This document shows, in pieces, positions 11,390-48,032 of a DNA stretch of 64,000 nucleotides (the first letter of the stretch is position 1; the number at the start of each line of letters is the position of its first letter). The DNA is from Candidatus Phycocordibacter aenigmaticus (GTDB lineage: Bacteria; Patescibacteriota; Minisyncoccia; Phycocordibacterales; Phycocordibacteraceae). Where the stretch lies: assembly GCA_045401115.1 (NCBI GenBank), contig CP174359.1, forward strand, positions 50,117-114,116, read 5' to 3'. The notes under the pieces are model-generated. The model worked only from the letters and a program-made list of their open reading frames with translations, did not search any database and was not told the origin of the DNA. The translations under genes and the position numbers were made by a program.

Positions 11390-11669
11390 ACTGATTTTTG
11401 TTTTTATTGTTCTATCTGAATATCTGAACACCAGAAAAATCACTCGTTACAGTTGCTGTACTAGTGGTTTTATTATACCTGTTTTAGAAAAATTGTCAAG
11501 TAAGTAAAGATACTTACCTCTCTTCTGCTTTAGATTCTATCTGCCGTGTCGATAATCGGCAAAACCGGATATGTTTCAGAGCAGACATATCAGTGCTCGT
11601 TCTGCGCTCGATCGAGACGCACAACACCGACCATGTTAACCACTACTCAATGAGTAGCGATGGTTCCAC

Positions 11670-13127
<1,458 letters not shown>

Positions 13128-23742: not shown

Positions 23743-23851
23743 GTACTGGCGACTAGCTACTTTCCCCCGAAGAGTATCATCGCCACTACCGCGCTTAACT
23801 GCCGAGTTCGGAATGGGATCGGGTGTTTCCACGGCGTCAAGTCACCAGAAC
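23743..23851 (-). rRNA. 5S rRNA
   Basis: The reverse complement reads TCTGGTGACTTGACGCCGTGGAAACACCCGATCCCATTCCGAACTCGGCAGTTAAGCGCGGTAGTGGCGATGATACTCTTCGGGGGAAAGTAGCTAGTCGCCAGTA. Its 5'/3' ends pair (helix I) and the CCGAAC loop is conserved. Confidence 0.85.
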
Positions 23852-23925: not shown

Positions 23926-27226
<3,301 letters not shown>

Positions 27227-30445: not shown

Positions 30446-32200
30446 TTAAAATACCTCCTCTCCCTCTCTACTATAAAGGAGTAGCGCCAACCGGATCATC
30501 CGGTATGGATACGCTCCCTCAAGGTGGGTAAATATATCTTTCAATTTCTCAGTGCCCACAACCTTGCACGCGTCGTGGATAGTATCAATATCGTTTTCAA
30601 TACCGGCGGCAAGGTACGCAATATCGCGAGGACTCAATAACCCCTCATCCACGCACTCCTTTATATGTGTCAATATTGTTTCAGCTTTAAGCCCGCGCTC
30701 CTGCGCTATCGCATCCAGCGCCTGCCCGTCCCGCACATATTCAAGCGTCTCGTGCGCTGAACGTTTTTTCTGCACACCACCAGCGGCGGCACCCTTCCTC
30801 TTCTTTCCCGCCGGCGCATCGGCGCCGGCGGGACCACCCTCCTCGCTCGGCTCAGACCCACCACACGCTTTTACAAAATTCGCATGCATCGTTTCCACCT
30901 CGCTCGACTCCATGCTCGCAAACGCCTCCCGCGCCTCCAGCGACTGCGCGCGAAACGCCGCGTCCTTAGCCAACACCTCTGGGTGCACCTCAAGTGCGCG
31001 CTCGTTAAAGCCAGCAAGCGAAAGCCCCGCCAATGTCCGCACGCGCGAAAGCGCCACATACCCCTGCCCATATTCAAACGCCCGCGACAAATCCATATGC
31101 GCCGCGTCCAGCGACATCCCCTGACTCTTGTGCACGGTCATCGCCCACGCCAGACGCAGCGGCACCTGCCGAATACTCGCCAACACCCGTCCCCCGTCTT
31201 CAATACGCCACTCATCGGGCTCCGCCACCAACTCCCTGCCGTCATGCGTTTCCACTACCGGCAAACCGTCCTCATTAAAATCAATCACCACCCCCAACGT
31301 TCCGTTCACATATCGCCCGCGCATGTGGTCGTTCTTAGTAAACATCACCCGTGCACCTTCTTTCAGTTCCAACTGCTCCGGCGACAGGCACCCCCGCTTC
31401 AGCGCATCCACCAAACGCGCCGGCCCCGTGCTCTCCATCTTCAAACGCTTCGCTTCACTGGCAAGGTTCCCCAATGCTCGTTCATTAATTTGGTCCACGT
31501 TTGCATTATGCGCGTACAGTTGTGTCACCTCATCGTCCGGTTCACCACCCGCGCGATATTCCAAAATTGCTCGATGCTCTTCCGTACACGCACCACGCCG
31601 TATCGCCAACAACAACTCAAGAAATTCAGGATCTTCTTGTCGATACTGCTCAGACAGGTAACACACCAACGGTTGCAGGTCGCGCCACGCCGGCGACTCA
31701 AACGCAAAGTCCGTCATAGGCGCATGTGCGAACATCCCCTGTCCATGCGGCGCACGACGCACCACCGGCGGCAACTGGAAAAAGTCTCCCACCAACACCA
31801 CCTGCATTCCGCCAAACGGCTGCGTCGTGCGCCGCACTTCCCGGCACACCGCGTCTACCATGGACAGCGTACCCTGCGAGAGCATCGACACCTCATCAAT
31901 AATCAGCACGTTCGTGCTCGTCACACGCTTCACCACGTTCTTGTTCTGCGCGATCATGTCCAGATCCTGATCGTTCAAATGGTCCTTGATACCGATACCA
32001 CTCCACGAGTGAATCGTCATACCACCAATGTGTGTCGCCGCAATGCCGGTCGACGCGGTAATAGCCGGGTCAATTCCCCGCTCACGTAACCACCGCACAT
32101 ACGCGTTCACCGTATGCGTCTTTCCACTCCCCGGCTCACCAGTCAGAAACACGTTCGCCCCGGTTTTCAAAATAGTCAGCGCTTCGCGTTGCGTCATCAT
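30446..32200 (-). CDS. PIF1/RecD-family SF1 DNA helicase with C-terminal HTH domain
   Basis: LTGEPGSGKTH (Walker A), LIIDEVSM (Walker B), VLVGDFFQLPPV, TVHKSQG and GYVALSRV, with a C-terminal HTH-like tail. The gene is strongly GC-rich relative to the window, so the long antisense ORFs are artefacts. Confidence 0.8.
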   Translation of the reverse strand: MMTQREALTILKTGANVFLTGEPGSGKTHTVNAYVRWLRERGIDPAITASTGIAATHIGGMTIHSWSGIGIKDHLNDQDLDMIAQNKNVVKRVTSTNVLIIDEVSMLSQGTLSMVDAVCREVRRTTQPFGGMQVVLVGDFFQLPPVVRRAPHGQGMFAHAPMTDFAFESPAWRDLQPLVCYLSEQYRQEDPEFLELLLAIRRGACTEEHRAILEYRAGGEPDDEVTQLYAHNANVDQINERALGNLASEAKRLKMESTGPARLVDALKRGCLSPEQLELKEGARVMFTKNDHMRGRYVNGTLGVVIDFNEDGLPVVETHDGRELVAEPDEWRIEDGGRVLASIRQVPLRLAWAMTVHKSQGMSLDAAHMDLSRAFEYGQGYVALSRVRTLAGLSLAGFNERALEVHPEVLAKDAAFRAQSLEAREAFASMESSEVETMHANFVKACGGSEPSEEGGPAGADAPAGKKRKGAAAGGVQKKRSAHETLEYVRDGQALDAIAQERGLKAETILTHIKECVDEGLLSPRDIAYLAAGIENDIDTIHDACKVVGTEKLKDIFTHLEGAYPYRMIRLALLLYSREGEEVF

Positions 32201-32337
32201 TCCTCTATCCTATCATTTTCAAAACCACCCATGTGCGGACGTCCGACGTCCGCACATGGGTAGGTCACACACCGCCCTCATACAAAACAGCGGCGGCCCC
32301 TTCGGGACCGCCGCACCATCGCACCACCTACCACTCA

Positions 32338-32820
32338 CTAATACCCCAACCGTCGCATGTCAGTCATAAATCCCGTACGGCGCAGTGCATACTCATGACG
32401 CAATGAATCAAACAACTCGCGCGACATATTCGCTGGGTACCCGTCTTGGTTAATGTATCGTTGTGCATCAACATCAACCAAACGATCAAGCGCGTATCCC
32501 ATCGCACGCAAATCTTCCTTATATCCAATAATAATATTGTCTGCCACACCATCGTCAATACGCCGCGCCAAGTATCGCATCTCCTCCACGTCTTCCCATA
32601 CAATATCGCGCATCGCCACCACATCTTCATATACATCCCACGCCAGTCGTTCCTCTACGGGTGCTACTTCACCAGACGGTCCTTGCTCATGTGGAAACTC
32701 GCCCTCACCAACCGATGGTCTAATCGGCTTATCCTGCAACACTTTTGCGCCGTCATATATGTCGGTGTCACTATCAAAAACCTGATGCACGTCTTGTAGT
32801 ATTTCAATTAAACCTTCCAT
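32338..32820 (-). CDS. Hypothetical acidic protein
   Basis: 160-aa ORF between the giant protein and the helicase, on the same strand with a 13-nt gap to the giant ORF. No family recognised. Confidence 0.4.
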   Translation of the reverse strand: MEGLIEILQDVHQVFDSDTDIYDGAKVLQDKPIRPSVGEGEFPHEQGPSGEVAPVEERLAWDVYEDVVAMRDIVWEDVEEMRYLARRIDDGVADNIIIGYKEDLRAMGYALDRLVDVDAQRYINQDGYPANMSRELFDSLRHEYALRRTGFMTDMRRLGY

Positions 32821-32835
32821 ATATTCATTATACGC

Positions 32836-35800
32836 CTAGCGTTTATTTTGCAAGCGCCGACGATGCATCACCCGCCGCAGTATAAAATAGAGGGCTATAT
32901 ACAGCGCCACCAGGAACAACAACCACGTGCTTATGCGCAACAACCAATCAACCTCCCCCGCTCCGACAGCCGCTAGCTGTTGAGTCTGGGGTGCCACGTT
33001 GCTTCCCACCACTACTTCCATCTTTGGCGCATCTACAGCAGTCGTCGTTGCTACATCAGACACGCCTTCGTCCGCCACCACACTCAACGACCTCGGCGCG
33101 GGTGCCTCCGGCACCCGCGCCGACACTTGCCCACCACCACTGACACGCGCCACCGTCTCTTGATCTGCCGCTACCGCCACACCATCCTCTTCTTCATCCT
33201 CAACTACCGCAGGAACACTCTCCTCCTCTTCTTCCTCATCATCAAAAATTCGTCCGTTGCTTCCGCCGCCGGCAGGCACTGGTGCTTCTGGCTCCACATC
33301 CACATCAGCACAATCACTATTACTATCGGCCTCTACGGTCGTATCCACCTCACCATCACCATTGCTATCAAGTGCCAACGCACTCACCGCACTGCCACTT
33401 ACATTAAACGTTCCGTGCGATTCAGCCGACACCGTAAAACTACAAAATGCCGCAGTCACGGTCTGCCCACTTCCCTCTAATATCTCAAACAACACACTCA
33501 CTACGCCGTCTCCTGTACCATCCACCGCCACTGTATATTCCTCACCTTCTGGCACCACCACATACTGCGCTTCACCTACCGTCACGTATGCACTGCCGGC
33601 AATCTCCTCTTCAGAGAACAGCACCTCCCCATCTGGATCTTGCGTCGCATCAAGTCCAGTATAATTGCCCGCGCTATCGACAATACTCAACGACACCGGC
33701 GAATGCGCGCTCACTACCAACGAACGTGGCACATCTGCTTCAGTAAATAGTTGTGTTCCAACGTATCCGCCGGTACTCACCGCACCTGCTGAAAGAATAC
33801 TCCGCAACACATCAAACGTCGGTGTCGCTTGCAGTAAGTGAGTAAACAATGACACTCCCGCGTCGCGCACATACTGCCCCATCTGTATGTAGTAGGTCGT
33901 CGCGCTCTCGTCGGCTGCCGCACTCGCACTGGCAACCACGCCGTCACCATCAGTGCGCCACTGTGCCTGCTGTTTTGTCTCATCACTGCCGGCTGCTCCC
34001 CAGTAGGTCACTCCGCTCAGAGTCGGCAGTCCCCATCCGGTAAGTTGCACCACCGCCATTCCCTCAGGGAAACTAAACGCATCATACGTGTCGTGCACCG
34101 CCTGCCCGCCGCTCACGCGATTCGCGGACAACGCGCCCGGCGCGCCCCGCCGGGCGCCACCCACACGCGGCACCACACTTCCCACAACAAACGATACAAA
34201 ATCATCATACGTACGCACACCGTCATCACCATACGCGCTGCGCCACGCCTCACCCTGCTCCACACTTTCAGTAAAACCAACTACCGCGCCGCGCTCCGCC
34301 GGCGCGACCACCCGCTCAAAATATGTCCGAGAAGGCAGCACCACACTCGCACTGCCAAGGTTCGCCCCAAACGCTGGCGTGCTACTTCCCACTGCAAAAC
34401 GTACCGGAAGATTCATCGCCATAAAAGGCGTTCGTGCGCCATTACTACTTTCAGTCACCTCATCATGCAACAAACCAACAGCACTCCGGGCACTCCCCAG
34501 TTGCGGCACACCTGCCAAAAGCACCGTATCCACCAAATCCGCTTTTCCTTGCGCAACCAATTCCCGCACCAGCGCCTTCGTCACCAAACCGCCATACCCA
34601 TGCGCAACCACCGTCACCGAACCAGTGTATGAATTCTCAGCCAACGCTTCTATGCGCGCTACCATATCCAAAACCCCATTCGCTGTTGCCACACCATTCT
34701 CCACAACAGCAGTTGGTGTATACCGCCAGTCATACGGCAGTGCTTCCCATGCAGCTATCGTCGACGTACCCGTCACACTGTCCACCTGTGCTAATGCATC
34801 AAAAAAGGTACTCGCCGTATCATACAGACCCACTGTTTCCGTTCGACTACCACCGGCGCGCACCGGCACACCAACACTAAACGAAGTAATTAAATCGCCC
34901 ACCACAATGCCACTCTCCTGCGACACACCGGCGTCAGTAAAGGCAAGCTTCGCCAGGTCATCCTCCACCTCACCAACCTCAGGCGGCCACAACTGGTCTC
35001 CTCCTTGTACCAACTGTGAACCCTGCATATCCGGCACAAATACAACCGACGAACAACACGTTGGTGTTGGCGGCACAATTATTGGCGCACTGTCCAACCA
35101 CGGGTCATACACCGCACTCCCGTCAATACGTGCTCCCGTACCTTCATCATTGTCGCGGTGGTCTGGCCCCGTGTCACTACCCCACCAAGAATTCGTCGCC
35201 TGCACAGAAAATGCAGCTCGATTATCAATACCCACACTCACCGCAGCAAAATCACTCTGCTCAATAGAAAACGCGTCACCGCCAAACACCCGCACTGCCG
35301 GGCTCCCCTCACTAAAAAGTGCACGCGACACCGTGGTCGTACCACGCTCCTGTACCAATGCACCTGAGTTCTTAAAATCAGAAATCACCGCGCGCGTCAC
35401 CGTTGCCTCACCGCCACGGTTTACCAAAAACCCATTCGAATTACAAAAACCAAACCGACACTGAAACGACGCTCCAAAATACCGCGCTTCTATATTTTCA
35501 AGTACCGCAGTGGCACCCTCACTCACCCGCACGCCATACGCCATGTCCCCAGGCGCCGCGACACTCGCATCACCATCAGCATTACTATCTCCTAAAACAC
35601 TGTCGTCGCGTAGCGACGTAAACACCACCGCCTCAGCGCCCGGTGTACTCGTCCCTACCTGCAAATTACCGTCCTCACCCACCGAGAAAAGCGTATGATT
35701 ATCAACATCTGAAAATCCTTTTATTACCACGCCCGGATCCACTGAAAACCGCGTTCCGTCTTTAATAGACACGTTCACTGGGCGGTACGGCACACCATCT

Positions 35801-37419
35801 TTCACTAACCGATACGTTGCTCCGTCCCAGAATGAACCCGTCACCAATATCACTCCCGTTCCGCTGGTACTGCCACTATTCGTAAAATCTGTGCCACCGG
35901 CAATACGCACGTCACTTGCTGAAAGAGTCACCTCACCAAAGGTCAACGTACCGCCTTCCGCATCAAACCCATAGTCCATATTCGTAAACGTCGTATCCGT
36001 CACCGTACTTTCACCACCACGCTGCACCACTCCCGTGCCACCGCCGGTAAACACACTCTCGCGCAGCGCCAATGTACCGCCAGTCACCCGCACAAATCCC
36101 GAGTCCGTACTCGTTGCCACCGTTGTGGTACGCATCTGCACATCTCCGCCGTTCACTGCTACTGCCGGTCGGTACGTACACCCACCACCGCCACACGCTA
36201 CCGCCACGCCGCCATAATAAAAATGTGTATGAGCCACACGCACAACAGCATCCTCACTGAATGTGATGTTGTGCCAGTCACCAACGCTCGGCGTGCTCGC
36301 ATCAGCATCACCATTTGTGTCTCCACCCCGGCTATCATCCTTGAGCGATGTCACCACTACCGGGTTCCCACTCGTACCTTCAATATGTAACGCACCAGTG
36401 CCCTGCACTGAAAGTGGCGTACTCCCCGAAAGCTTCACAATTGTTCCTGCTTGCACGGTCACGCGCACATCACTATCAATCACTACGTCATCAAACACAT
36501 ACACATTCTCAGCGCTCAGCGTCGCATCCTCCGTCAACGTTCCCGTCAATGTCACCACTGGCAATCCCGGCACCGTTACTGTCAGTGAACTCGTCGCCGT
36601 ACGTAGGGTGCTATCTACTACATAGTCGTAGTAACTCACCGCCACCGTGTAGTCACCGCTCGCTACACTCTCTCCATCATCAGTGGTACCGTCCCACTCA
36701 GCGCTCGCCGTCGTTGATGTCGCGTTTTCATCAAAAGACGCTACCGCAGTCGCTGACCCACAGTCAGCGCCACCATTAGGACACACAAACAACTCCGTCA
36801 CATACACCTCCCGCGACGCGCTCACCGCCACCGCAACAGGTGTGCTCGTGCTCAGCGTTGCATCATCCTCCACACCATCGAGGGTAAACGAAATAGTCGC
36901 CGGCAGCGCCCCTGCCGGCTCCTCAACCGTAATGCCAATCAGCGCCTCCTCGGTCAACGCGTCAGACTGTTCACTATAATTAAAATACTGCACCGAAAAC
37001 TCGTAGTCTCCCCCGTCCACGCGCGTACCACCGTCATCCGTCCCGTCCCAGTCTTGTGACGCGCTCGTACTTGTCGCCTGCACCGTGAACGTCTTCACCG
37101 CACTATCTGCTGTACACGTACCTGCCGCATCCGGACATATAAAAAGAGCATCCACATATACCTCATCGGTGGCACTCACCCCCAGCGCCACCGTCGCCCC
37201 ATCGGCGTCGGCCAACGTCGCGTCAGTCTCGGCGTCATCCAGGGTGAACGTTAATTCCACCGAGTTATCCTCCGCAGGTGGTGGTGGTGGTGGCGGAGGC
37301 GGAGGTGGCGGTGCAGCTCCCTCAGCAACCACCGACAGCGGCATCACCAAAAGCATCACCACCAGCGTCAAAGAGACTGCTCGCGCACCTGCATTAAATA
37401 GTGTGGGAAACAACCACAT
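32836..37419 (-). CDS. Giant (1527 aa) secreted/surface protein: signal peptide, poly-Pro linker, 2x FlgD-Ig-like domains, right-handed beta-helix, LCAT-like alpha/beta-hydrolase domain (nucleophile Ser replaced by Gly), Ig-like domain, acidic and Pro-rich linker, C-terminal TM anchor
   Basis: Domain evidence: N-terminal hydrophobic signal followed by PPPPPPPPPPPP; FlgD-Ig-like repeats (TFTVQATSTSASQDWDGTDDGG...GDYEFSVQYFNY, repeated twice); Gly/Thr-rich beta-helix repeats and NSWWGSDTGP; LCAT-family signature EALPYDWRY with elbow VTVVAHGYGGLV; and C-terminal WLLRISTWLLFLVALYIALYFILRRVMHRRR. Paralogue of ORF 41461..45906. Confidence 0.75.
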   Translation of the reverse strand: MWLFPTLFNAGARAVSLTLVVMLLVMPLSVVAEGAAPPPPPPPPPPPPAEDNSVELTFTLDDAETDATLADADGATVALGVSATDEVYVDALFICPDAAGTCTADSAVKTFTVQATSTSASQDWDGTDDGGTRVDGGDYEFSVQYFNYSEQSDALTEEALIGITVEEPAGALPATISFTLDGVEDDATLSTSTPVAVAVSASREVYVTELFVCPNGGADCGSATAVASFDENATSTTASAEWDGTTDDGESVASGDYTVAVSYYDYVVDSTLRTATSSLTVTVPGLPVVTLTGTLTEDATLSAENVYVFDDVVIDSDVRVTVQAGTIVKLSGSTPLSVQGTGALHIEGTSGNPVVVTSLKDDSRGGDTNGDADASTPSVGDWHNITFSEDAVVRVAHTHFYYGGVAVACGGGGCTYRPAVAVNGGDVQMRTTTVATSTDSGFVRVTGGTLALRESVFTGGGTGVVQRGGESTVTDTTFTNMDYGFDAEGGTLTFGEVTLSASDVRIAGGTDFTNSGSTSGTGVILVTGSFWDGATYRLVKDGVPYRPVNVSIKDGTRFSVDPGVVIKGFSDVDNHTLFSVGEDGNLQVGTSTPGAEAVVFTSLRDDSVLGDSNADGDASVAAPGDMAYGVRVSEGATAVLENIEARYFGASFQCRFGFCNSNGFLVNRGGEATVTRAVISDFKNSGALVQERGTTTVSRALFSEGSPAVRVFGGDAFSIEQSDFAAVSVGIDNRAAFSVQATNSWWGSDTGPDHRDNDEGTGARIDGSAVYDPWLDSAPIIVPPTPTCCSSVVFVPDMQGSQLVQGGDQLWPPEVGEVEDDLAKLAFTDAGVSQESGIVVGDLITSFSVGVPVRAGGSRTETVGLYDTASTFFDALAQVDSVTGTSTIAAWEALPYDWRYTPTAVVENGVATANGVLDMVARIEALAENSYTGSVTVVAHGYGGLVTKALVRELVAQGKADLVDTVLLAGVPQLGSARSAVGLLHDEVTESSNGARTPFMAMNLPVRFAVGSSTPAFGANLGSASVVLPSRTYFERVVAPAERGAVVGFTESVEQGEAWRSAYGDDGVRTYDDFVSFVVGSVVPRVGGARRGAPGALSANRVSGGQAVHDTYDAFSFPEGMAVVQLTGWGLPTLSGVTYWGAAGSDETKQQAQWRTDGDGVVASASAAADESATTYYIQMGQYVRDAGVSLFTHLLQATPTFDVLRSILSAGAVSTGGYVGTQLFTEADVPRSLVVSAHSPVSLSIVDSAGNYTGLDATQDPDGEVLFSEEEIAGSAYVTVGEAQYVVVPEGEEYTVAVDGTGDGVVSVLFEILEGSGQTVTAAFCSFTVSAESHGTFNVSGSAVSALALDSNGDGEVDTTVEADSNSDCADVDVEPEAPVPAGGGSNGRIFDDEEEEEESVPAVVEDEEEDGVAVAADQETVARVSGGGQVSARVPEAPAPRSLSVVADEGVSDVATTTAVDAPKMEVVVGSNVAPQTQQLAAVGAGEVDWLLRISTWLLFLVALYIALYFILRRVMHRRRLQNKR

Positions 37420-37737
37420 ATATTCTCACTATATATGCTTTTTCTATGGCTTTAACCAAACACGCCGTCTCCCATCTACCACTTTCCACCTACTATTTAC
37501 TACCTTCCACTTTCTACCTACCACCTACCAATTTCCACATACTTGCGCACGCATTCCCCACATACTTCTCCCCAGTTTTATCCCCACCACGCCTCCAACA
37601 CGCGCCGACATACTCCCACGGATACACAAAAAGTTTTCCACTACAACTTTTCAAAAACCTAAAAATCTCTTCCGGGCACGGCACCCAAAAAATAAACGGC
37701 TCACCAGAGTGAGCCGTTTATTATCTTGCTGTAAGAA

Positions 37738-37896
37738 CTAATCAAGCAAACCGAAAAGATCAACCTTGTTACCCTCCAACATATCAGCGCCAATAGTCAA
37801 AACAATTCCACCGAGTATGGTCCATGTTACCCAATCAGGCACGCCGGGAACCACAGGTCCGAGTTCGTACAATGCTGGTTTTTCTTTTTTTGCCAT
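37738..37896 (-). CDS. Hypothetical 52-aa membrane peptide (below ORF-track cutoff)
   Basis: ATG 37894-37896 on the minus strand, translating to MAKKEKPALYELGPVVPGVPDWVTWTILGGIVLTIGADMLEGNKVDLFGLLD and ending at TAG 37738-37740. Lies between dgkA and the giant ORF. Confidence 0.25.
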   Translation of the reverse strand: MAKKEKPALYELGPVVPGVPDWVTWTILGGIVLTIGADMLEGNKVDLFGLLD

Positions 37897-38032
37897 ATAT
37901 ATTTTTTCTTGAAGTATTAAACTCCAATACTTATACCATAAAACTAGATTTTTTTCAAGCTACTCCCTTCTGTCTTACTAAATCCCAAATCAAAAATCTA
38001 ATATCTAATATTCTTCCCTCTTTCCAAACACC

Positions 38033-38374
38033 TTAATTAAATATTACAAACGCGAAACAAATAAGCCCAAACACTGCCGCCCACACCACAGCGCCTGCAG
38101 CCAAGTCCTTGCTCCGACCAATAGCCGCATCATGCTCAGGATGAAGCTTACTCAACGCTATCTCAATAGCTGAGTTTTGCAGTTCGGCAACCATAACAAA
38201 GAACCAACAAAATACGAGTAGTAACAGTTCATTTGATGAAAGGTTGAATACCATATACACAATAGGAAGGCCGACTACCCCAAGAGCCGCCTCAATACGA
38301 ATAGCACTATCGTGAACAAACGCGTACCACAACCCCCGAAACGGATGCGAAAGCCGTGTTATCCAATATTTCAT
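38033..38374 (-). CDS. dgkA: Prokaryotic diacylglycerol kinase / undecaprenol kinase (DgkA family)
   Basis: 113 aa with three TM helices, HPFRG, SAIRIEAALG and NSAIEIALSKLHPEHDAAIGRSKDLAAGAVVWAAV (DAGK_prokar signature). Confidence 0.75.
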   Translation of the reverse strand: MKYWITRLSHPFRGLWYAFVHDSAIRIEAALGVVGLPIVYMVFNLSSNELLLLVFCWFFVMVAELQNSAIEIALSKLHPEHDAAIGRSKDLAAGAVVWAAVFGLICFAFVIFN

Positions 38375-38763
38375 ATCCTCACTATACCAAACCCTCTCCT
38401 TCTCTCTTAATTAAATCCCAAACCTAAAATCTAATATCTAAAATTCTCCTATGTTTTGTTTGGACTCTGGTCCCTGTGTTCTGGGCTTTTACTACCTTCC
38501 ACCTTCTAAATCACAACAACTTCTCGCTCCGCTCGCATCCACAAAAATCACACCCACCTGCAATCGTACATCGACACGCTACAGTACATAAACCTGCACA
38601 CGGGCATGAATCACATGAAAAACCTTTCTCGTCTTGTATATGTTGCTCAATATTTTTCATACCCCCAGTATACCAAACTCCACTTGCCACTTCCCATTCA
38701 CTACCTTCATAAGGTAGGTCCTCGGGCAGGTAAAAATTATGCAACACCCGGTGTTGTACAAAA

Positions 38764-39273
38764 CTACTCCATCATCAAAGACTCCCTCACCTCTTCTGGC
38801 GCATTCACCTCTCGTGAAAGTGTCGCAAGGTCATCTGGCGTATTCAATCCAATGCCTTTATTCGGTTGCAGTGTATAAAGGGTCACGTGTGTTGGTTGAT
38901 ATGGAATATCTATACCAAATTCTTCATTCAGTTTGTCAAAAAATGGTGTCAGGTTTTCTACCTCGCACAGTGCAACCAGCGTCTTGCGCTCATCATTCTC
39001 AGCAAAGCGAAATGCTCCGGTGAAATACACAGAAGGCATGTCATGTTCCTGTATGTACTCACAAAAAAGAGCAAGTACCCTCTCTTCCACTTCTGACATC
39101 TGCGCAAGTATGTTTTTAACGCATACCAGACTCACATGAAATTCATCTTTCCTCTGTAGTGTGACCCCTTCTACCGCAACGGTATCTGGCAAGGTACCCA
39201 ACACAACAGGCATGCCAATATATCCCTTGTTATACGTAAATGTATTCCCATCACAAATATAGTGGTTATTCAT
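38764..39273 (-). CDS. 2H phosphoesterase superfamily protein (LigT/cyclic-phosphodiesterase-like)
   Basis: Two H-x-[ST]-x motifs at the appropriate spacing (EFHVSLV and PTHVTLYT). Confidence 0.55.
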   Translation of the reverse strand: MNNHYICDGNTFTYNKGYIGMPVVLGTLPDTVAVEGVTLQRKDEFHVSLVCVKNILAQMSEVEERVLALFCEYIQEHDMPSVYFTGAFRFAENDERKTLVALCEVENLTPFFDKLNEEFGIDIPYQPTHVTLYTLQPNKGIGLNTPDDLATLSREVNAPEEVRESLMME

Positions 39274-39327
39274 ACCACCACTATATCAAACCCTCCCTCT
39301 CCAAAACTCCTAGAGTAAATTTCCTTC

Positions 39328-39876
39328 CTAAAGAATCGCACCTTGATACCCAGCCCTTTTCAGCGCTTCTTTAATAAAAATTTTCTTCCCTTCTGAATAT
39401 GGACCTCTCTCTCCCTGATACTCAATAAGAAGTCTTTCTTTAAGCGCTTGATAGCGCCTTTTATATTCAGGGTTCTCAATAAGAAAATCTCTAAAGATTA
39501 TTTGCTGGGTCCAAAAATCAGAGTGTATTTCTGCTAATTTTAAGTAATGAGTACGATTCTCCTCAGGTCCTTTTACAAACAGGATGTGAAGCTGTTCCTC
39601 TCTTAAATCCCTCCGAAACTCGTACCCCAATTGTGCAAGCAACTCCGTATAGTGTTCCCACTCATCAAAAGAACGAATACCAACCATGAAATCCAAAATC
39701 GGTTTTGCTTTAATTCCGGGAATTGCCGTTGAACCAATATGTTCAACACCAAGCACAGCATCGCCCAACAATTTCTCAATATGTTCTTTTTCTAAACAAA
39801 ATGCATCCACCCAATCAGGATGATATTCAGACAACTGAACCGTACCGCGCTGAAGTCCTAGGTTCTTGTTTTTCAT
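39328..39876 (-). CDS. GrpB-family protein (minimal nucleotidyltransferase fold)
   Basis: HIGSTAIPGIKAKPILD (GS...D nucleotidyltransferase motif) and overall GrpB/UPF0157 similarity. Confidence 0.6.
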   Translation of the reverse strand: MKNKNLGLQRGTVQLSEYHPDWVDAFCLEKEHIEKLLGDAVLGVEHIGSTAIPGIKAKPILDFMVGIRSFDEWEHYTELLAQLGYEFRRDLREEQLHILFVKGPEENRTHYLKLAEIHSDFWTQQIIFRDFLIENPEYKRRYQALKERLLIEYQGERGPYSEGKKIFIKEALKRAGYQGAIL

Positions 39877-39916
39877 ACCGTATATCTAACATTAATTATC
39901 CGTCTACTTACTATCC

Positions 39917-40696
39917 TCAAACACGTACTCCCACCCCTAACAGCCATCGGCCTTCTCCGTCCTTGGTACTAGGAATATAGGAGGGAGAAAATCTCATTGT
40001 TTGGCGCTCATTATATACAGCGACATCTCCGGACTGATACACAATACTCTCTTCAGCATCAACCATACACCTAAGAAGATAGCGAAATGCCTCGTCTTCT
40101 TTATTCATATTTAGGGATTTAGTAGTGTCAGGAAGATCAAGATTTTCAATATACTGTTGAAAATCAGACGGCTGGTACAACTCCTTAGAAAATTCATACC
40201 CACCCTCAACTTGCTTTAGTAAACCTGATGCAAGAAGCATCCCCCTCTTCTCTTCACCTGCTTGAGCCATTATGTCATGCGCACTCAAGAAATATGTTTT
40301 TGCGTTTTTATCTCCCCGAAGACAATAAAAAATTGAAAAAGAAAATTGTGGGTGTCCATGCCATGTCTCAACATTTGTCGCCCCTTTTTCGTCTACAACA
40401 AATCGGATAGAATTCTCAACCATCTTTTCAGAAATTTCACCAAAATAACTTCCTAAAATCTCAATGAGGTACTTTGGAAATATATCGGGAATTGAGCCAT
40501 GAATCTTTTGTGGAGTTTCATCAAACGCAAATGGAGTGGGAACATTACGAATTATTATATTGTCACTATTCATATCACGAACGGCCTGCAACTGCGAAAG
40601 CACTTCATGAGAAAAAAGATCTCCAAGACCTAAGGGGTTGTCTTTAAGGTTCTCTATAGCAGATGAATCCCCTGAAAACGAGACAATATTCAACAT
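39917..40696 (-). CDS. Hypothetical protein
   Basis: 259-aa ORF, with a possible cupin/dioxygenase-like WHGHPQF segment that is not convincing. Confidence 0.4.
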   Translation of the reverse strand: MLNIVSFSGDSSAIENLKDNPLGLGDLFSHEVLSQLQAVRDMNSDNIIIRNVPTPFAFDETPQKIHGSIPDIFPKYLIEILGSYFGEISEKMVENSIRFVVDEKGATNVETWHGHPQFSFSIFYCLRGDKNAKTYFLSAHDIMAQAGEEKRGMLLASGLLKQVEGGYEFSKELYQPSDFQQYIENLDLPDTTKSLNMNKEDEAFRYLLRCMVDAEESIVYQSGDVAVYNERQTMRFSPSYIPSTKDGEGRWLLGVGVRV

Positions 40697-40787
40697 GTCA
40701 CCACTATACCAAACCCCTCAAAAACAAACGGCTCACCCTATTGAGCCGTTTCTCTATTTTCTACCCCTCAGACGTAAACTCTTTTTG

Positions 40788-40870
40788 TAGCGAGGACCGA
40801 CCTCGCTACAACTGACACACGTCACTCCACATCAAAAAATAGCAAGAAATAGCGAGGTCGGTCCTCGCTA
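40788..40870. repeat. REP/BIME-like element: two inverted GTAG-initiated palindromes (tGTAGcgaggaccgacctcgctaca ... atagcgaggtcggtcctcgcta) with a spacer of about 40 bp
   Basis: About 85% identical to the element at 46798-46878. A single copy lies at 52723-52743; related hairpins with the same GGACCGACC core lie at 52673-52693 and 58137-58157, and a degenerate copy at 953-975. Confidence 0.7.
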
Positions 40871-40897
40871 TTTTGCTAAACACTACCCTTTCGAGTT

Positions 40898-41464
40898 TCA
40901 CAGACGTGCACCCGCCATAATCCACTCAACCAACAGGCGTATATAAGGACTTGCTATTAACATTGCGCCAATACCGAGCACTACCCCACTCAACCAATAC
41001 CAGAGGACATGGAGTTTTTTCTTTCCGGAACGTTGCCGCCTCTCACTCAATATCGAAACACCAATAACCCCCAAAGAAACTCCGACATAAAGTGAGCTTA
41101 AAATTAACGCGAACTCAGAATTTGACGGTCCAAGATCCCAACCGCCGCTAGACGACTCATCTGGCCACCATATAAGTATTATTGCTATAGGGATATACCA
41201 TACTGCAAACTTCCGCCACGCGTGCACTGCTTGCGGGATAAAGAAAAGGAGAAAAAAGACAATAGCGAGGGCGATGGAGGGATAGAAAAGTTGATCGCCA
41301 AGTAATGGAAATGGACAAGAAGTATCCATGACACGTGTTTCATAATTTATATAACAAATTCCAAACTGATAACTATGGTTAAAAAAGTAACCTGCTATTG
41401 CTCCTGCAACCGAAAGCAAGAAAAACCAAAACATCCAATTTTTAAATAACTTTTTCATACTCAA
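40898..41464 (-). CDS. Hypothetical polytopic membrane protein co-transcribed with the giant protein ORF 41461..45906
   Basis: 188 aa with about five TM helices. Its start overlaps the upstream giant ORF stop (ATGA), implying translational coupling. Confidence 0.5.
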   Translation of the reverse strand: MSMKKLFKNWMFWFFLLSVAGAIAGYFFNHSYQFGICYINYETRVMDTSCPFPLLGDQLFYPSIALAIVFFLLFFIPQAVHAWRKFAVWYIPIAIILIWWPDESSSGGWDLGPSNSEFALILSSLYVGVSLGVIGVSILSERRQRSGKKKLHVLWYWLSGVVLGIGAMLIASPYIRLLVEWIMAGARL

Positions 41465-44400
41465 AATAACGAATTAATAAATCTTACAGTTTGCTTAATA
41501 AAGCCAATAATTTTATCGTACCACCCTGTTTGCACTACTGCCGCCACTTGTGCACTTTGTGTGTCAGGTGTAGCAGTGCCTAATTCACGCTCAGACTCTA
41601 CGCTCGTTTCTGGAGTCTGCGTAGTGCGTGCAACAGGTTCAGTTTCTACATGCACGATAGGCGCCGGAGCTGGTTCTGGTTCGCTCACCTCAGGCGTTGT
41701 AGTTGCACTGGTGGTGGCAGTTACTACTCCACTCACCACACTGACTGCTGAAGACATTGCAGTTGCACCCACTGAAACTGCTGGCGAGTCCAAACCGCCC
41801 GACACCACACCATCTACTCCATCAGGAGACACTGTCTGGTCAACATTTCCGTCCCCGTCGAGGTCAAGAGCAATATCACTTGAAGCGCCGCCGGTAATGG
41901 TAAACGATGCTTGGGTTGAAGTAGACACTGTAAAGTTTGAATAACTCGATACTATCTTTTGGTTATCACCTGAAAGGGTTTCTACAAACACTGTCACATC
42001 CCCACTGCCAGTGCCACCCATAGCAAATGTATACTCTCCATCATCAGGAAGGATAAGATATTTAGCGTCACCAACTGTGAAATATGAACTGCCAGGGATA
42101 TCGTTCGTGACAGTGAGAATATCAGCATCCGGGTCCTGGCCAGGGGTGATGCCGGTATAGTTTCCGTGCTGATCGGTAACACCAAGTGTGACTGGAGAGT
42201 GAACGTTAACGATTAATCTATCGTCCTCATCATTGGGCTCCCATTTTGTTGCAGAGATATATTCACTCTCTGTTACTGTTTTATTTTTTAAAACATCATA
42301 TATAAGACCCTGGGTCGGATTAACACTAACAACATCTTTATGGTCTGTGTCTTTGTGGCTCTCGCTATATAATTTTAAATTAAAATAATATTTCTCCTCT
42401 CCACTACTCACTGCACTTGGATATACTACCGCCCCATCGCCCTCCGTAGTAAAGAGTGCTCTATAAATATTGTTAGCGCGCTCTCCATCACTATCCCCCT
42501 CTTTGTTGAAGTGGTAAGTAATACCTTTAATGGTTGGAAGACCCCAGCCTGCAACCTGCACTACCCGTATGGAACTTGGGAAATTAAAACTGTCATACTC
42601 CCGATGCCAGTCTCGTGCTTTAGTGACCAAACCTGTTTCGAGCACTTCCGGAACCTTATATTTTTTGTCATTTGGAGCACGTGGTATAAATGCTGCTGTT
42701 AGAAAATTACTCATATCAAGGAAACTGGTAGTGGTGTCGCCATACGTCGACCACCACTTTCCAAGCATTCTTGAAGCTTCGCGTTCGGTTTCAGGCTGTA
42801 CAAAAACGATGACAGGGTCAAGCACTTTTTCGAAATATTTCTCTGACGGTAAAAGATGGTGAGACACATCTATCGTTTTCCCCAGTCGTCGTGCGTCTCG
42901 TTTTGAGATTAAAGTAATAAACCCTCCTGCTACCGTAATTTCAGAGCCCTCACCATGCAATAACCCTGTCATCGCCCGCGGTGTCCCGAGTTGTGGCGAA
43001 GCAACCATAACAAAATTATCAACCAAGCCTTCTTTTCCTTCATCAATTAAACGTTTAATAAGCGCCTTGCCTACCAAGCCGCCGTACGAATGCATCACCA
43101 TCGTTACCTTCCCAGTGCGCGATTCCTCGGCAAGCGCTTCTATACGCTCCACAAAGTCAATCACTCCTTCGGTGGTTGTGGCACCATGCTCGGCAATATA
43201 GTCCGGCGCGTAGCGCCAGTCGTACGCTAATGGCTCCCATGCAGTAATAGCTGAAGCGGTTTGCTCGCTACTCGTCGCAGTGAGCGTATTCATAAAGTCA
43301 GTGAAGGGTTGATAAATAGGCTTAAGAGAGAAATTATTTAAAACACCATCAACCACCACATTATCTGTCACCGGCTCACCGGTTTCATCAAACACCAGCT
43401 TTGCAAAATATCCATCAGCTTGATGTAATGCAGTTGGCCATAATGTATTTCCCCCGCTCTTCAACCTACTCCCCTGCAACCCCGGCAAAAACACTACCGA
43501 AGAACAACACACCTCTCCTTCATTCTCCTCACCTTCCCCTTCTTCACCACCATCATCACTAATCGGCGGTGGCGCAAACGGGTCATACGAAAGCCAGTTA
43601 CTAAATTCCACCAACCCAACCGCAGCCACGCCGCCTCCGTCAGGATTAGACGAATGTTGAGGTCCACTCACACTACCCCACCAGTTACGCACCGCATCAA
43701 ATGTTTTTGAAGAATGGTTATGAATGGCGGTTGCCAACGAACTATAGAAAGCACTCCTGGTAATACTGAAACTGTCGCCACCAAACACCCGCACCGCTGG
43801 CCCACTTCCCTTAAACTGCGCACGCGACACGGTCGTCGTGCCCCGCTCCTGCACAATAACGCCCGAGTTTTTAAAGTCTGAAAACTCCGCATACTCAACC
43901 GTCGCCTCCCCACCCCGATTCGTTAAAAATGCGTGCGAGTTACAAAAACCAAATGCACATGAGAAATTCTTTCCAAAGTACCGCGCAGTGATATTCCCTA
44001 AGGAAACCGTCCCGCCTTCCGAAACCCGAATACCATACACCATATCCCCGGCCTGCGGCGTGGTACTGGCGCCATCATTATCTGTGTCCCCCAACACCGT
44101 ATCGTCACGCAACGAGGTAAAGATTACTTTTTCAACACCTTCCGCAGCATCTCCCACCACCAAACGCGCGCCACCACTTACCGAAAAAAGAACATCATTA
44201 TCAGTCTCAGATAACCCCTTCACCACCACCCCTGGGTCAATGGTAAACAACGTGTCGTCCTTTAAAGAGACATTATGTATATGATACGGAACACCATCTT
44301 TAACGAGTCGGTATGAGTCACCGTCCCACAGCGGTCCGGAAATAAACACAGACCCATCCCCGGTATTCCCACCGGTATTGGTAAACATAAGCGAATCTTC

Positions 44401-45906
44401 CGTCTCAGGATCAAAATGAAAACTGGAACTGCTCAACGTATTATTCCCAAACTCAACCTCTCCATTCGTCGCCAAAAGTGCTCGCTTCACTCCGGAAAAT
44501 GTACTGCTCGCAATCACTGCACTCCCGCCCAGCACCGCAAACCCTACATCACCCCCACGCACCGTACTACTTGCCACACTCAACGAACCACCATACAAAC
44601 GCACAAATCCTGAATCGGTTGTAGTTGCCACGCTCACATTCTCTAGTGTCACAACGCCATCAGCAATATACAACGCCGGGCCCGTGCAAGAATCATGCGT
44701 ACATGTTTTTACCGCACCCCCATACCGCACATCCGTGTTATACACACGCACCGTACTGTCATCACTGACGAGTATCTTACTCCAATCACCTTGACTCGGC
44801 GTCGTAGCGCTTCCATTCTCGTTACTGTCGCCACCAACCGAATCATCATACAGCGAGGTAATAGTAACTGGCGTCCCCGTCGCCGTTCCCACTGTAATTG
44901 CTCCACCATTTTTCACCTGCACCGGACGCTCGCCATACAACTTCACCACGGTCCCCGGCCGCACCACTACATGCGCACCGGAAACAATCATATTCTTTAA
45001 AATATATACCTCCCCGTCCCCGCCCACCGTCATATCAACATCAATCACTCCCGACAATGCACCTCTATCCACCAACTCCTCCTCAGACAGATCACCAAAT
45101 ATAAACACATCTGGCGAAACCTTTTCTACCGCCTCCTCCCCTGTAGCATAGTCATAGTAGCGAACCGCTGCTTTATAGTACCCTGGCGCTACCGCGCCAC
45201 CGTTAGAAGAAGCGCCATCCCATGTTTTTGAAAAAGCTGACGTAGTTGCGTTTTGCGAAAAGAATTTAACATCCGTACTCCCGTCACACGTTGTCACTAC
45301 TTCCGGGCATATGTATAAACGAGTAAAGTAAAACTCCTGCGGAGCTTCCACACCAATCGTAATCTCTCCCTCTCCAGATAAATCTTCAAACGAAAACATA
45401 AACTCAGACGGCGTCGTAGTCGCCCCGCCACCAGAACCATCATCCTCCACACCTTCACCGCCCTCACCGTCTCCATCTCCGCCACCATCAGACCCCTGCA
45501 CCGAAATCGTATACGCTCCCACTTCCTCAACAGCATCCTCCTCTACCTCATAACGATAATAGCGAGAAACCACTGTATACACTCCTTCCTCAACCTCTTC
45601 ATCATCTGCATCAGTGCCATCCCACTCCCGAGACGCACTCGTACTGGTTGCGTTAATATCAAAACGCTTCACATAGCTACTCCCGTCACAGACCTCAGCC
45701 TCAAAACTACAAATATACAACCGCGTAAAACGCACCTCGGTGGGTGCAGTAACACTAATAGTCATCGGTTCCCCTCCCTGCACAAAAGAAACATTCTCGG
45801 CCACTCCATCAAAACTAACACCTGTATAGCTGCTGCCCTCGGCAAACACCGCACCCGGCACTATAAAAAACAGCAAAACTACCACGGTGTATCGTAAACA
45901 CCTCAT
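41461..45906 (-). CDS. Giant (1481 aa) secreted/surface protein, paralogue of ORF 32836..37419: signal peptide, FlgD-Ig-like domains, beta-helix, LCAT-like alpha/beta-hydrolase with intact Ser nucleophile, Ig-like domain, Thr/Pro-rich C-terminus
   Basis: Same domain order as the other giant ORF: INATSTSASREWDGTDADDEE...GVYTVVSRYY; a beta-helix with NWWGSVSGP; CCSSVVFLPGLQGS...EPLAYDWRY...VTMVMHSYGGLV (elbow x-H-S-Y-G); and a C-terminal Ig-like domain. Confidence 0.75.
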   Translation of the reverse strand: MRCLRYTVVVLLFFIVPGAVFAEGSSYTGVSFDGVAENVSFVQGGEPMTISVTAPTEVRFTRLYICSFEAEVCDGSSYVKRFDINATSTSASREWDGTDADDEEVEEGVYTVVSRYYRYEVEEDAVEEVGAYTISVQGSDGGGDGDGEGGEGVEDDGSGGGATTTPSEFMFSFEDLSGEGEITIGVEAPQEFYFTRLYICPEVVTTCDGSTDVKFFSQNATTSAFSKTWDGASSNGGAVAPGYYKAAVRYYDYATGEEAVEKVSPDVFIFGDLSEEELVDRGALSGVIDVDMTVGGDGEVYILKNMIVSGAHVVVRPGTVVKLYGERPVQVKNGGAITVGTATGTPVTITSLYDDSVGGDSNENGSATTPSQGDWSKILVSDDSTVRVYNTDVRYGGAVKTCTHDSCTGPALYIADGVVTLENVSVATTTDSGFVRLYGGSLSVASSTVRGGDVGFAVLGGSAVIASSTFSGVKRALLATNGEVEFGNNTLSSSSFHFDPETEDSLMFTNTGGNTGDGSVFISGPLWDGDSYRLVKDGVPYHIHNVSLKDDTLFTIDPGVVVKGLSETDNDVLFSVSGGARLVVGDAAEGVEKVIFTSLRDDTVLGDTDNDGASTTPQAGDMVYGIRVSEGGTVSLGNITARYFGKNFSCAFGFCNSHAFLTNRGGEATVEYAEFSDFKNSGVIVQERGTTTVSRAQFKGSGPAVRVFGGDSFSITRSAFYSSLATAIHNHSSKTFDAVRNWWGSVSGPQHSSNPDGGGVAAVGLVEFSNWLSYDPFAPPPISDDGGEEGEGEENEGEVCCSSVVFLPGLQGSRLKSGGNTLWPTALHQADGYFAKLVFDETGEPVTDNVVVDGVLNNFSLKPIYQPFTDFMNTLTATSSEQTASAITAWEPLAYDWRYAPDYIAEHGATTTEGVIDFVERIEALAEESRTGKVTMVMHSYGGLVGKALIKRLIDEGKEGLVDNFVMVASPQLGTPRAMTGLLHGEGSEITVAGGFITLISKRDARRLGKTIDVSHHLLPSEKYFEKVLDPVIVFVQPETEREASRMLGKWWSTYGDTTTSFLDMSNFLTAAFIPRAPNDKKYKVPEVLETGLVTKARDWHREYDSFNFPSSIRVVQVAGWGLPTIKGITYHFNKEGDSDGERANNIYRALFTTEGDGAVVYPSAVSSGEEKYYFNLKLYSESHKDTDHKDVVSVNPTQGLIYDVLKNKTVTESEYISATKWEPNDEDDRLIVNVHSPVTLGVTDQHGNYTGITPGQDPDADILTVTNDIPGSSYFTVGDAKYLILPDDGEYTFAMGGTGSGDVTVFVETLSGDNQKIVSSYSNFTVSTSTQASFTITGGASSDIALDLDGDGNVDQTVSPDGVDGVVSGGLDSPAVSVGATAMSSAVSVVSGVVTATTSATTTPEVSEPEPAPAPIVHVETEPVARTTQTPETSVESERELGTATPDTQSAQVAAVVQTGWYDKIIGFIKQTVRFINSLF

Positions 45907-46012: not shown

Positions 46013-46738
46013 TTATCCTTTTTTTGAGCCAAGGTACCTAAGCTCTTGTGTATATTCAAAATGTGAAACTACTCCCACAAGATGTTTAACATCATCAAAA
46101 GAAGGAACATCCTCCTCAAGTTCCTTCAGTGCATCAAAATTAATAATGACCCGCTCCGGTCGCACCCTCCCTGCCCCTATATCAGGGAAACTCGCATGCG
46201 CGTAATTCGTAAGAAAAGAAACAGCATCACTCGGCAATGCTTCAAAACCGTCCTCTTTCCAGTTCGGCGCATGCAGATCAAGCGGATTAAGCGCGACATA
46301 CGCAAAGAGCCACCGCAGATAATCACCACTCTCTACGTGCCTACTCTTAAAAGGTCCTTGAAACACCGTTCCGGAATGCTCATGCTTTTTATTGAAATAC
46401 ATAGAATACCCCGTCGAAACCTTTTTCATAAAGCGTGAAATCCCCTCTTCGGCCTTTTGCCGGAGAATCAAATGGAAATGATTCGGCATCAACGCGTACC
46501 CCAAAACATCTACCAACCCCTGACCCACCTCCTCTTTTTCAAAAATTGATATAAAGGACTGTCCTTTATATTTATTGAGAAGATTTGCCGTGTGCATCTC
46601 CCTTTCGGTATTAGCAAGAAATAAAAGCAATTTAAAACGAAAATAATCTCTCTCATCGAGAAAGACCTCGGCCTTATGCGCGCCGCGATTATAGACGTGA
46701 TACACCTCATCAGCTACCAGTGGTGTTTCCCTCTGCAT
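46013..46738 (-). CDS. IS200/IS605-family HUH tyrosine (Y1) transposase, REP-associated (RAYT)-like
   Basis: N-terminal VYHVYNRG, HUH motif MPNHFHLIL and catalytic-Tyr motif AYVALNPL (Y-x3-NP). Flanked 60 bp upstream by a GTAG-initiated REP pair. Confidence 0.6.
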   Translation of the reverse strand: MQRETPLVADEVYHVYNRGAHKAEVFLDERDYFRFKLLLFLANTEREMHTANLLNKYKGQSFISIFEKEEVGQGLVDVLGYALMPNHFHLILRQKAEEGISRFMKKVSTGYSMYFNKKHEHSGTVFQGPFKSRHVESGDYLRWLFAYVALNPLDLHAPNWKEDGFEALPSDAVSFLTNYAHASFPDIGAGRVRPERVIINFDALKELEEDVPSFDDVKHLVGVVSHFEYTQELRYLGSKKG

Positions 46739-47176: not shown

Positions 47177-47966
47177 TCAATTCAACCGCTCAAGCTCTAC
47201 CCCAAACTCTTTTATCAGAGCGACGTCTCCTTCATCACGCGCTTTGTTTAACCCTTCGGTGAACGTGGTACGTGCCTTTTCAGTGTTTCCAGTAGCGCTG
47301 TAGTAAGCGCCGAGTGAAAAGTAAAGTCTCACATTCTCCGGAAATGCCGCCATCGCATCCTCTAGAATATCCACTGCTGCGGTAGTTTCAGTCTTATACG
47401 AGTACCGATACAAGTTATGTAACTCAAGGTATGGAGTCAGTGAGTTAGGATCAATACTCATTGATTTTCGGAAATACTCTTCCGATTTTGGATAATCTTT
47501 TAAGTCATAGTGGTACAACTTTCCAAGATTATCAAAAGCCACTGTGTCATTGGGGAGTACTTTGGTAAGAAATTCCCACACCTCACGAGAACCTTCATAA
47601 TCATTCGCTGCGTGATACAGCAAACCAAGCTCAAGCCAATCCGCACCAGAATTTGGATCCTCGCGCAGATTCTCCTGTGCAGTGACCACTTTGGTCTTAA
47701 TTATTTCACGAACATCCTCAGGGATATTTGCTGAAAATTGTACTGAACGAGAAAGACTAGGGAGTATGTCCTCATCTTTAGAAAGCACTTCAATAGAGTA
47801 TCCAGGTGTACTCGTACTATTCTCTTCCACATCCAATACCACATTCGTATTGTGCTCCTCTGTTTTTTTCACCTCCTCGTCAGCAAAAAACTGACTATAC
47901 ACAAAAAATCCTCCCACTCCCACAATGATAATAAGTGAACCAATAATCACCGGTATTTGTTTCATA
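47177..47966 (-). CDS. Membrane-anchored tetratricopeptide-repeat protein
   Basis: N-terminal TM (IPVIIGSLIIIVGVGGFFVY) followed by several TPR-like W/LG/Y/A/F/A/P repeats (WLELGLLYHAANDYEGS; AFDNLGKLYH; YFSLGAYYSATGN). Start taken at the internal Met. Confidence 0.6.
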
Positions 47967-47994
47967 TTCCCTATTATAACGCGCGGCGACCTAT

Positions 47995-48032
47995 AAAAAA
48001 ACACCCCACCAGCTTCGCTGGCGGGGTGTTTT
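47995..48032. terminator. Terminator hairpin after the third giant ORF; second hairpin at 48082-48110
   Basis: acaccccaccagc-ttcg-ctggcggggtgt and aaaacccccgc-cgaa-gcgggggttttt, both with T tracts. Confidence 0.6.

Follow-up and report, generated by a model that had tools for sequence, protein, structure and literature searches.

LPLA2 and LCAT are phospholipase A enzymes that work at membranes and possess transacylase activity, LPLA2 both hydrolysing and transacylating phospholipids by means of the triad Ser165/Asp327/His359 (PMC6027918). Among bacterial lipases, Tle4 forms a pair with Tli4 that follows an effector-immunity logic (PMC5611513). Patescibacteria, the bacteria of the candidate phyla radiation (CPR), lack lipid synthesis, and a 2024 review describes their mechanisms of lipid uptake and breakdown as unidentified (PMC11665869), the same review, citing Probst 2020, also suggesting lysolipids from neighbouring bacteria as a lipid source. 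A secreted phospholipase, Vamp_34_196, has been proposed for the CPR predator or epibiont Vampirococcus lugosii (PMC8080830). In this study we describe two paralogous genes, named A and B, in a stretch of 64,000 nucleotides (nt) of Candidatus Phycocordibacter aenigmaticus (assembly GCA_045401115.1, contig CP174359.1, positions 50,117 to 114,116 of the forward strand), hereafter the window, to which coordinates refer unless a locus label precedes them; genes A and B, their domains and the membrane partner gene downstream of B are all located on the minus strand. On balance, we lean towards an explanation in which B would be a surface lipase docked on its partner and deacylating foreign membranes, and A its non-catalytic paralogue.

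Gene B (41461..45906) encodes a secreted multidomain protein of 1481 amino acids (aa) with an apparently intact LCAT/LPLA2-like alpha/beta-hydrolase at approximately aa 797–1227 (42226..43518). The Pfam LCAT model (PF02450, gathering score 21 bits) matched B with 40.3 bits (E 3e-10, aa 893–1163) and A with 19.4 bits, just under the cut-off; the LCAT assignment made for both proteins in an earlier sequence-only reading of this DNA was therefore upheld by hidden Markov model (HMM) for B but not for A. The signature motif named in that reading, (P/A)YDWR at aa 895–896, is present in both proteins, as AYDWR in B (aa 894–898) and as PYDWR in A, while its H-S-x-G elbow occurs in B only (MHSYGG, aligning to AHSMG of LPLA2), A carrying AHGYGG. 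The elbow serine of B, Ser940 (codon 43087–43089), together with Asp1157 (within GDG) and His1189, is 100% conserved across 70 aligned full-length homologues taken from genomes, and the PYDWR-type motif and the triad align to those of LPLA2. A homologue search with B aa 790–1240 retrieved 28 proteins with a Pfam LCAT tag, which are named either 'hypothetical protein' or, at JGI, 'pimeloyl-ACP methyl ester carboxylesterase'.

As a single-sequence query, B found nothing relevant among PDB sequences, and a family profile was needed to reach LPLA2 (E 1.7e-6) and LCAT (E 7e-5), the resulting alignment spanning PYDWR, AHSxG, GDxTV and the histidine. Prediction of the structure of the hydrolase segment, which the earlier reading had recommended, was performed with AlphaFold2 (AF2) on B aa 790–1370 and the family alignment, and gave a confident model (mean predicted local distance difference test score, pLDDT, 87.9; predicted template modelling score 0.90) in which an alpha/beta domain is followed by a beta-sandwich. 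Foldseek placed LPLA2 at the top of the matches to this model (E 2e-13, target-normalised template modelling score 0.66–0.69), followed by LCAT (E 6e-11), the lipase Tle4 of a type VI secretion system (T6SS; E 9e-10) and BlEst2, a Bacillus lipase, and the LCAT-family fold, i.e. an alpha/beta core with a cap and membrane-binding insertions, is matched by B. Based on the family match, the fold match and the invariance of the triad in the 70 homologues, B may credibly be regarded as an active member of the LCAT/LPLA2 family.

Gene A (32836..37419; 1527 aa) displays the same architecture without the catalytic serine. The two open reading frames (ORFs) appear in the ORF list with the coordinates and lengths previously given for them, and the single domain order proposed for both was confirmed by BLASTP, which aligns A and B collinearly over approximately 1,420 aa at 38% identity: each consists of a signal peptide, two FlgD-Ig-like repeats, a beta-helix, the hydrolase, a beta-sandwich, a linker and a C-terminal helix. 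The signal peptides, which had also been proposed previously, were read off the translations by eye, the signal-peptide-like N-termini ending in VVA/EG in A and in VFA/EG in B (aa 1–22, 45841..45906, MRCLRYTVVVLLFFIVPGAVFA/EG); homologues possess them too. Just past the predicted cleavage site, A contains 12 consecutive prolines (aa 36–47, 37279–37314), this run, the two repeats and the beta-helix together occupying aa 33–775 (35095..37323). Two ATSTSAS.(E/D)WDG...Y..Y repeats are present in each protein (in B at approximately aa 23–137 and 165–272, 45091..45840), and against the FlgD_ig model (PF13860, gathering score 27 bits) A scored 35.6 bits over two stretches, whereas B, likewise over two stretches, remained below the cut-off at 22.8 bits. 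The FlgD-Ig-like class previously given to both sets of repeats is thus recognised by Pfam in A alone, and those of B are counted as FlgD-Ig-like because they are homologous to those of A.

The right-handed beta-helix, situated at approximately aa 280–775 of B (43582..45069, ending in NWWGSVSGP), exceeds the PF13229 cut-off of 25.9 bits in both proteins (28.9 bits in A and 29.8 bits in B), its class being assigned from the HMM; the associated N(S)WWGS..GP motif, also seen in the earlier reading, is found at aa 741 in B and, as NSWWGS, at aa 743 in A. A CCSS motif opens the hydrolase module of both proteins. The further Ig-like domain that had been placed after the hydrolase corresponds to the beta-sandwich of the AF2 model (approximately aa 1228–1362 of B, 41821..42225, starting with HSPV; model strands 441–570, pLDDT >90). 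Each of the 82 hydrolase ORFs detected in the loci retains this beta-sandwich, the term loci being used here for the 80 best stretches (labelled L001 etc.) obtained when one genome per GTDB species was scanned. Secretion and surface display of A and B, as envisaged earlier, are judged plausible.

The description of the pair as two lipases proved to be wrong, as A is devoid of a nucleophile. Its degenerate LCAT-like domain (approximately aa 785–1230, 33730..35067) keeps PYDWR and has Gly941 (34597–34599) at the nucleophile position, the codon being GGG as opposed to TCG at Ser940 of B. Further losses in A are G797D (in the N-terminal PG loop), T976S, P977A and G986D, and of the 65 alignment columns that are conserved in at least 90% of the homologues, A retains 50 and B 60. 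The serine is kept by 70 of 70 aligned genome homologues and by 21 further metagenome homologues, and A is the sole Ser-less member among approximately 93 examined. From these sequence comparisons, A is probably a pseudoenzyme, i.e. a homologue without serine hydrolase competence. A sequencing error as the cause of the Ser-to-Gly change is unlikely, given that it involves two base changes and that 14 other conserved positions are lost; a second Ser-less candidate, suggested by a regular-expression match to HGYGG in L056, was rejected since alignment identified AHSNGG as its true elbow. B is the closest relative of A (37.7%) but is itself nearer to L001 (45% over the full length) than to A, which suggests that A is either an old duplicate or a fast-evolving paralogue. 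The metagenome scan yielded no orthologue of A above 34% identity, all of the 21 scorable matches keeping the serine.

The C-termini of the two proteins differ, and of the anchors that had been assigned to both, only that of A was corroborated. A ends in a predicted transmembrane helix (aa 1485–1513; Kyte-Doolittle 2.35 over 19 aa) and a basic tail (RRVMHRRRLQNKR, 32839..32967), whereas B ends in a Ser/Thr/Pro/Val-rich linker of approximately 90 aa (aa 1363–1452) and an amphipathic helix, QTGWYDKIIGFIKQTVRFINSLF (linker and helix 41464..41820), whose maximum Kyte-Doolittle value of 0.85 indicates that it is not transmembrane by itself. An LPXTG sorting motif is present in neither C-terminus. 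The hydrophobic helix and basic tail of A are preceded by APQTQQ, one form of a motif x-P/Q-Q-T-A/Q (APQTQQ, IPQTASAYDASQQ, GQTATVIQS, PDTQSAQ) that was observed 15–25 aa before a hydrophobic or amphipathic C-terminal helix in A (32881–33000) and in the C-termini of L055, L054, L069, L070, L074 and L026; this could represent a variant sorting signal reminiscent of NPQTN. The tail type of B is shared with L001 and L026, and most family members possess a Lys-rich helical stretch followed by a conserved terminal helix (..DAQxLLxLLxQIExxL), a motif type that is confined to these hydrolases within the loci.

An exhaustive profile search of 1.84 billion representatives (50% identity clusters) assigned 2,681 clusters to the hydrolase family at E≤1e-30 and 5,201 at E≤1e-10, and the scan of species genomes, for which a 12-sequence alignment served as query, found a relative encoded in at least 382 of them. 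Nearly all of the best 80 carry a Patescibacteria label (Paceibacteria, Nomura-, Kaiser-, Zambryskii-, Taylor- and Moranbacteria, and Minisyncoccia), and the few short contigs among them that lie in other bins are probably mis-binned. The conserved unit comprises CCSS, the hydrolase, the beta-sandwich and the C-terminal tail, preceded by an N-terminal extension ranging from 0 to approximately 940 aa. A beta-helix similar to that of B was identified in 19 locus proteins (roughly a quarter), the full architecture of Ig-repeats and beta-helix in L001 and L026, and independent gene calls contain Beta_helix, NosD or DUF5018 alongside LCAT. The fusion of adhesin-like modules to an LCAT domain is recurrent, not unique, and it is unannotated. 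A search of other CPR genomes, as advised by the sequence-only reading, recovered the hydrolase module as well as the fusion. Its claim that the architecture is not known to be described holds to the extent that in the collection searched no paper was found linking LCAT-type enzymes to CPR, nor one on Patescibacteria phospholipases directed against host membranes, but the fusion is not peculiar to this genome.

The polytopic membrane protein encoded next to B had been mentioned only in passing, as part of a lipid theme, and emerged as a conserved partner of the hydrolase. The partner gene (40898..41458; 186 aa, five predicted helices) has its ATG 2 nt past the stop codon of B, and a terminator-like hairpin (40873–40847) is located beyond it; judging from this arrangement, B and the partner appear to be co-transcribed. 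A homologue of the partner lies directly downstream of the hydrolase gene on the same strand, usually abutting or overlapping its stop codon, in 40 loci according to a single-sequence search, and an iterated profile raises the number of partner-bearing loci to 54 of the approximately 68 that have room for a downstream gene. In most of these 54 it is immediately downstream on the same strand, and in a few the nearest copy is found approximately 200 nt downstream and not abutting. Conversely, when long contigs were looked up starting from the partner, four of four contained a PF02450 gene ending 1–46 nt upstream. The pairing of B with the partner is accordingly based on the 2-nt spacing, the position of the hairpin and synteny. 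In two of these four contigs (L106, 1–1611; L107, 5638–10381) the LCAT-partner pair adjoins type IV pilus genes (T2SSE/PilB, T2SSF/PilC and N_methyl pilins), a neighbourhood that may link the pair to attachment machinery.

The partner family comprises 116 database clusters, all of which are labelled 'hypothetical'. Its core consists of four transmembrane helices, a fifth being present in the window copy, L001 and L026, and as to its conserved features, the first loop carries a Cys pair, the second loop is conserved (reading PGSGDYFSPYPEQ in many members), and W81 and S128 are invariant. Both conserved loops are predicted, from the positive-inside rule, to face outward. The AF2 model of the partner has a pLDDT of 81. 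Several loci carry tandem, divergent copies of the partner gene, namely L064 (four), L066 (four), L006 (five), L047 (two) and L033 (two). L006 (1573–3229 and 12139–12579) contains two hydrolase genes, the first of which is followed by three partner copies. In L064 (1836–4143), an orphan fragment of a hydrolase C-terminal tail (3470–3728) is located directly upstream of the fourth partner copy. The window holds a single partner copy, and none that belongs to A.

Docking of the C-terminal tail of B onto the partner is the role that we favour for the latter, since the tail motif is peculiar to the family, a partner copy occurs in a module with an orphan tail, and A, which has its own transmembrane anchor, lacks a partner. 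In the explanation to which we incline, B would be Sec-exported and displayed on the surface of a Paceibacteria-type CPR cell. From the domain order and the usual layout of monoderm surface proteins, the distal half of B, i.e. the two Ig-like repeats and a beta-helix of approximately 500 aa, would constitute an adhesin-like module, which varies across the family. The proximal half would be made up of the LCAT/LPLA2 serine hydrolase (Ser940-Asp1157-His1189), the beta-sandwich and a wall-spanning linker, with the hydrolase and beta-sandwich sitting atop a stalk, disordered or coiled-coil, whose terminal helix would lie at the membrane. Docking onto the 4–5-helix partner would most likely be what keeps this helix at the membrane of the producer, and the adhesin modules would bring a foreign bilayer close to the hydrolase. 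As suggested by the biochemistry of the family, B would then most likely deacylate glycerophospholipids of a neighbour or host membrane as a phospholipase A, possibly with transacylation, and the fatty acids and lysolipids released would feed an organism that is unable to make lipids. A would be a self-anchored paralogue which, having lost its nucleophile, is probably a non-catalytic, lipid- or membrane-binding adhesin. The substrate of B and its target membrane are what we infer, as is the scavenging of lipids from a host membrane. Deacylation of lipids by B would fit the lipid auxotrophy of Patescibacteria, the suggestion that lysolipids are a lipid source and the proposals of secreted phospholipases for CPR predators (PMC8080830).

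Several points weigh against this explanation. The related folds include lipases, thioesterases and polyhydroxybutyrate (PHB) depolymerases; the partner has no Pfam or NCBIfam match and no fold match in the PDB (best E approximately 1); the epibiotic lifestyle of this lineage is presumed; and an immunity role accounts for the tandem partner arrays no less well than docking does. These arrays make immunity a serious rival to docking, and a toxin-immunity pair, in which B would be a secreted membrane-lytic phospholipase that kills host or competitor cells or makes them permeable, and the partner would protect the membrane of the producer, is the alternative that survives best, albeit as a distinctly less probable one. 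For membrane-acting bacteriocins, immunity proteins of a small, polytopic kind are known, the partner gene is both conserved and tightly coupled, its divergent tandem copies (L064, L066, L006, L047 and L033) resemble immunity arrays, and the Ser-less A is without a partner gene. As a conserved gene adjoining the hydrolase, the partner gene is a candidate for a cognate immunity gene, but its polytopic product bears no similarity to Tli4 or to any solved fold. The window ORFs scanned and the loci looked up revealed neither T6SS genes (VgrG/Hcp/PAAR) nor any other setting for contact-dependent delivery, and the C-terminus of B is tether-like, not that of a freely released enzyme. Additionally, the orphan module of L064 couples the partner to the tail of the hydrolase and not to its catalytic domain. 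The two explanations overlap, however, and differ only in the purpose of the enzyme and the role of the partner.

It is also conceivable, though rather unlikely, that the LCAT-like enzyme and the 4-helix partner together constitute a lipid-acquisition machine of the Paceibacteria, in which the tethered enzyme would strip a host bilayer of acyl chains or lysolipids, hydrolytically or by transacylation, and pass them to the partner, which would insert or flip them into the membrane of the CPR cell, and Ser-less paralogues such as A would act as lipid- or membrane-binding adhesins. Slightly more doubtful still is a housekeeping function, in which the enzyme would remodel lipids or lipid-anchored molecules of the producer's surface (lipoprotein, lipoglycan or S-layer anchors, by PGAP1-like deacylation) and the partner would present the substrate or position the enzyme. 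A weak Pfam similarity to PGAP1, Palm_thioest and DUF676 is consistent with such a function, as are the proximity of the hydrolase to the producer membrane in the domain order and the near-ubiquity of the family in Paceibacteria, where its genes often lie beside conserved housekeeping genes, among them those for ArgRS, PIF1 and IleRS; yet LPLA2 and LCAT are the best matches by a wide margin, not PGAP1 or thioesterases, and the large, variable, adhesin-like N-termini are hard to reconcile with an inward-looking enzyme. Finally, an esterase acting on a non-lipid polymer (an environmental polyester or acylated polysaccharide, in the manner of PHB depolymerases or cutinases), with the beta-helix as a carbohydrate-binding or lyase-like module, is highly improbable, as both the PYDWR motif and the LCAT HMM point specifically to the LCAT family, even though modules of the beta-helix and NosD type are common companions of polysaccharide-active enzymes.

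With respect to the surroundings of the two genes, dgkA (38033–38374), which encodes a DAGK_prokar protein and which the sequence-only reading had included in its lipid theme, was rejected as part of the system, since it is syntenic with the hydrolase in only one of the 80 loci and a terminator-like hairpin separates it from A. On the other side of A, an ORF for an acidic protein of 160 aa (32338–32820) separates A from a strong terminator-like hairpin (32314–32290) and is probably co-transcribed with A; the protein lacks a signal peptide, matches neither Pfam nor NCBIfam and is without homologues in the 80 loci. A forms part of a GC-rich island (30446–37419), the GC content being 0.57 in a PIF1 helicase gene and 0.56 in A, compared with a window mean of 0.478 and 0.40–0.45 in adjacent genes, and this island may have been acquired from a relative with a higher GC content. 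In other loci, the gene directly upstream of the hydrolase gene frequently encodes a PIF1 helicase. Upstream of B, a block of three genes (46013–46738, 47177–48004 and 48146–51727), encoding an IS200-like Y1 protein, a TPR protein and a protein of 1,193 aa, is syntenic with the hydrolase in several relatives. The 1,193-aa protein, which looks secreted and has a weak PG_binding_1 match, recurs together with the TPR protein in L040, L056, L060 and L061, and the loci in which the IS200-like Y1_Tnp protein recurs coincide with these only in part (L040, L015, L056, L019 and others); this Y1 protein gives the impression of being domesticated rather than mobile. The ribosomal RNA genes of the window are unlinked (11669–13126, 23744–23849 and 23932–27219, all on the minus strand), the gap of approximately 10.8 kb between 16S and 23S being protein-coding (SecDF, FolD, glycosyltransferases and FtsW), and the 23S match of 3,288 nt against a 2,925-nt model suggests an insertion of approximately 360 nt.

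Patescibacteria account for a large share of bacterial diversity and are unable to make fatty acids or phospholipids, and the family described here is a concrete and widespread candidate for the acquisition of lipids by these organisms. The combination of a catalytic domain, an operon partner and a natural dead paralogue renders the question of lipid acquisition testable with recombinant protein, and the family could yield a new class of bacterial membrane-active lipases together with a docking or immunity protein of a new type. The superfamily of the catalytic domain is known; what is new is a very large family, in Patescibacteria, of LCAT-like enzymes with predicted surface display, the recurrent adhesin fusion, a dedicated membrane partner without a fold match and a natural catalytic-dead paralogue.

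Compared with the eukaryotic enzymes LPLA2 (PLA2G15) and LCAT of PF02450, the hydrolase of this CPR bacterial family is only 14–18% identical, is embedded in surface proteins of 650–1,630 aa with a beta-sandwich, a tail and variable adhesin-like N-termini, and is paired with a dedicated polytopic membrane protein. Tle4/TplE (PA1510) of Pseudomonas aeruginosa, whose immunity protein is Tli4/TplEi (PDB 4R1D), has a lipase fold similar to that of B but is delivered by the T6SS, whereas A and B have Sec signal peptides and tether-like C-termini; likewise, Tli4 is soluble and periplasmic, whereas the partner has four to five transmembrane helices and a fold without a match in the PDB. The LCAT of Toxoplasma gondii (PMC5830472) resembles the present family in being an LCAT-family enzyme that is secreted by a parasite and implicated in action on host-derived membranes (in egress), and differs from it in being eukaryotic, soluble and without an adhesin fusion or a membrane partner. 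The same idea as that advanced here was put forward for V. lugosii, where a phospholipase would disrupt the host membrane and provide a lipid-auxotrophic CPR cell, attached by giant surface proteins, with phospholipids (PMC8080830); in that organism, however, phospholipase and giant adhesins are separate proteins and neither an LCAT-type enzyme nor a membrane partner was described, whereas in the Paceibacteria lineage studied here the enzyme and the adhesin-like modules are fused.

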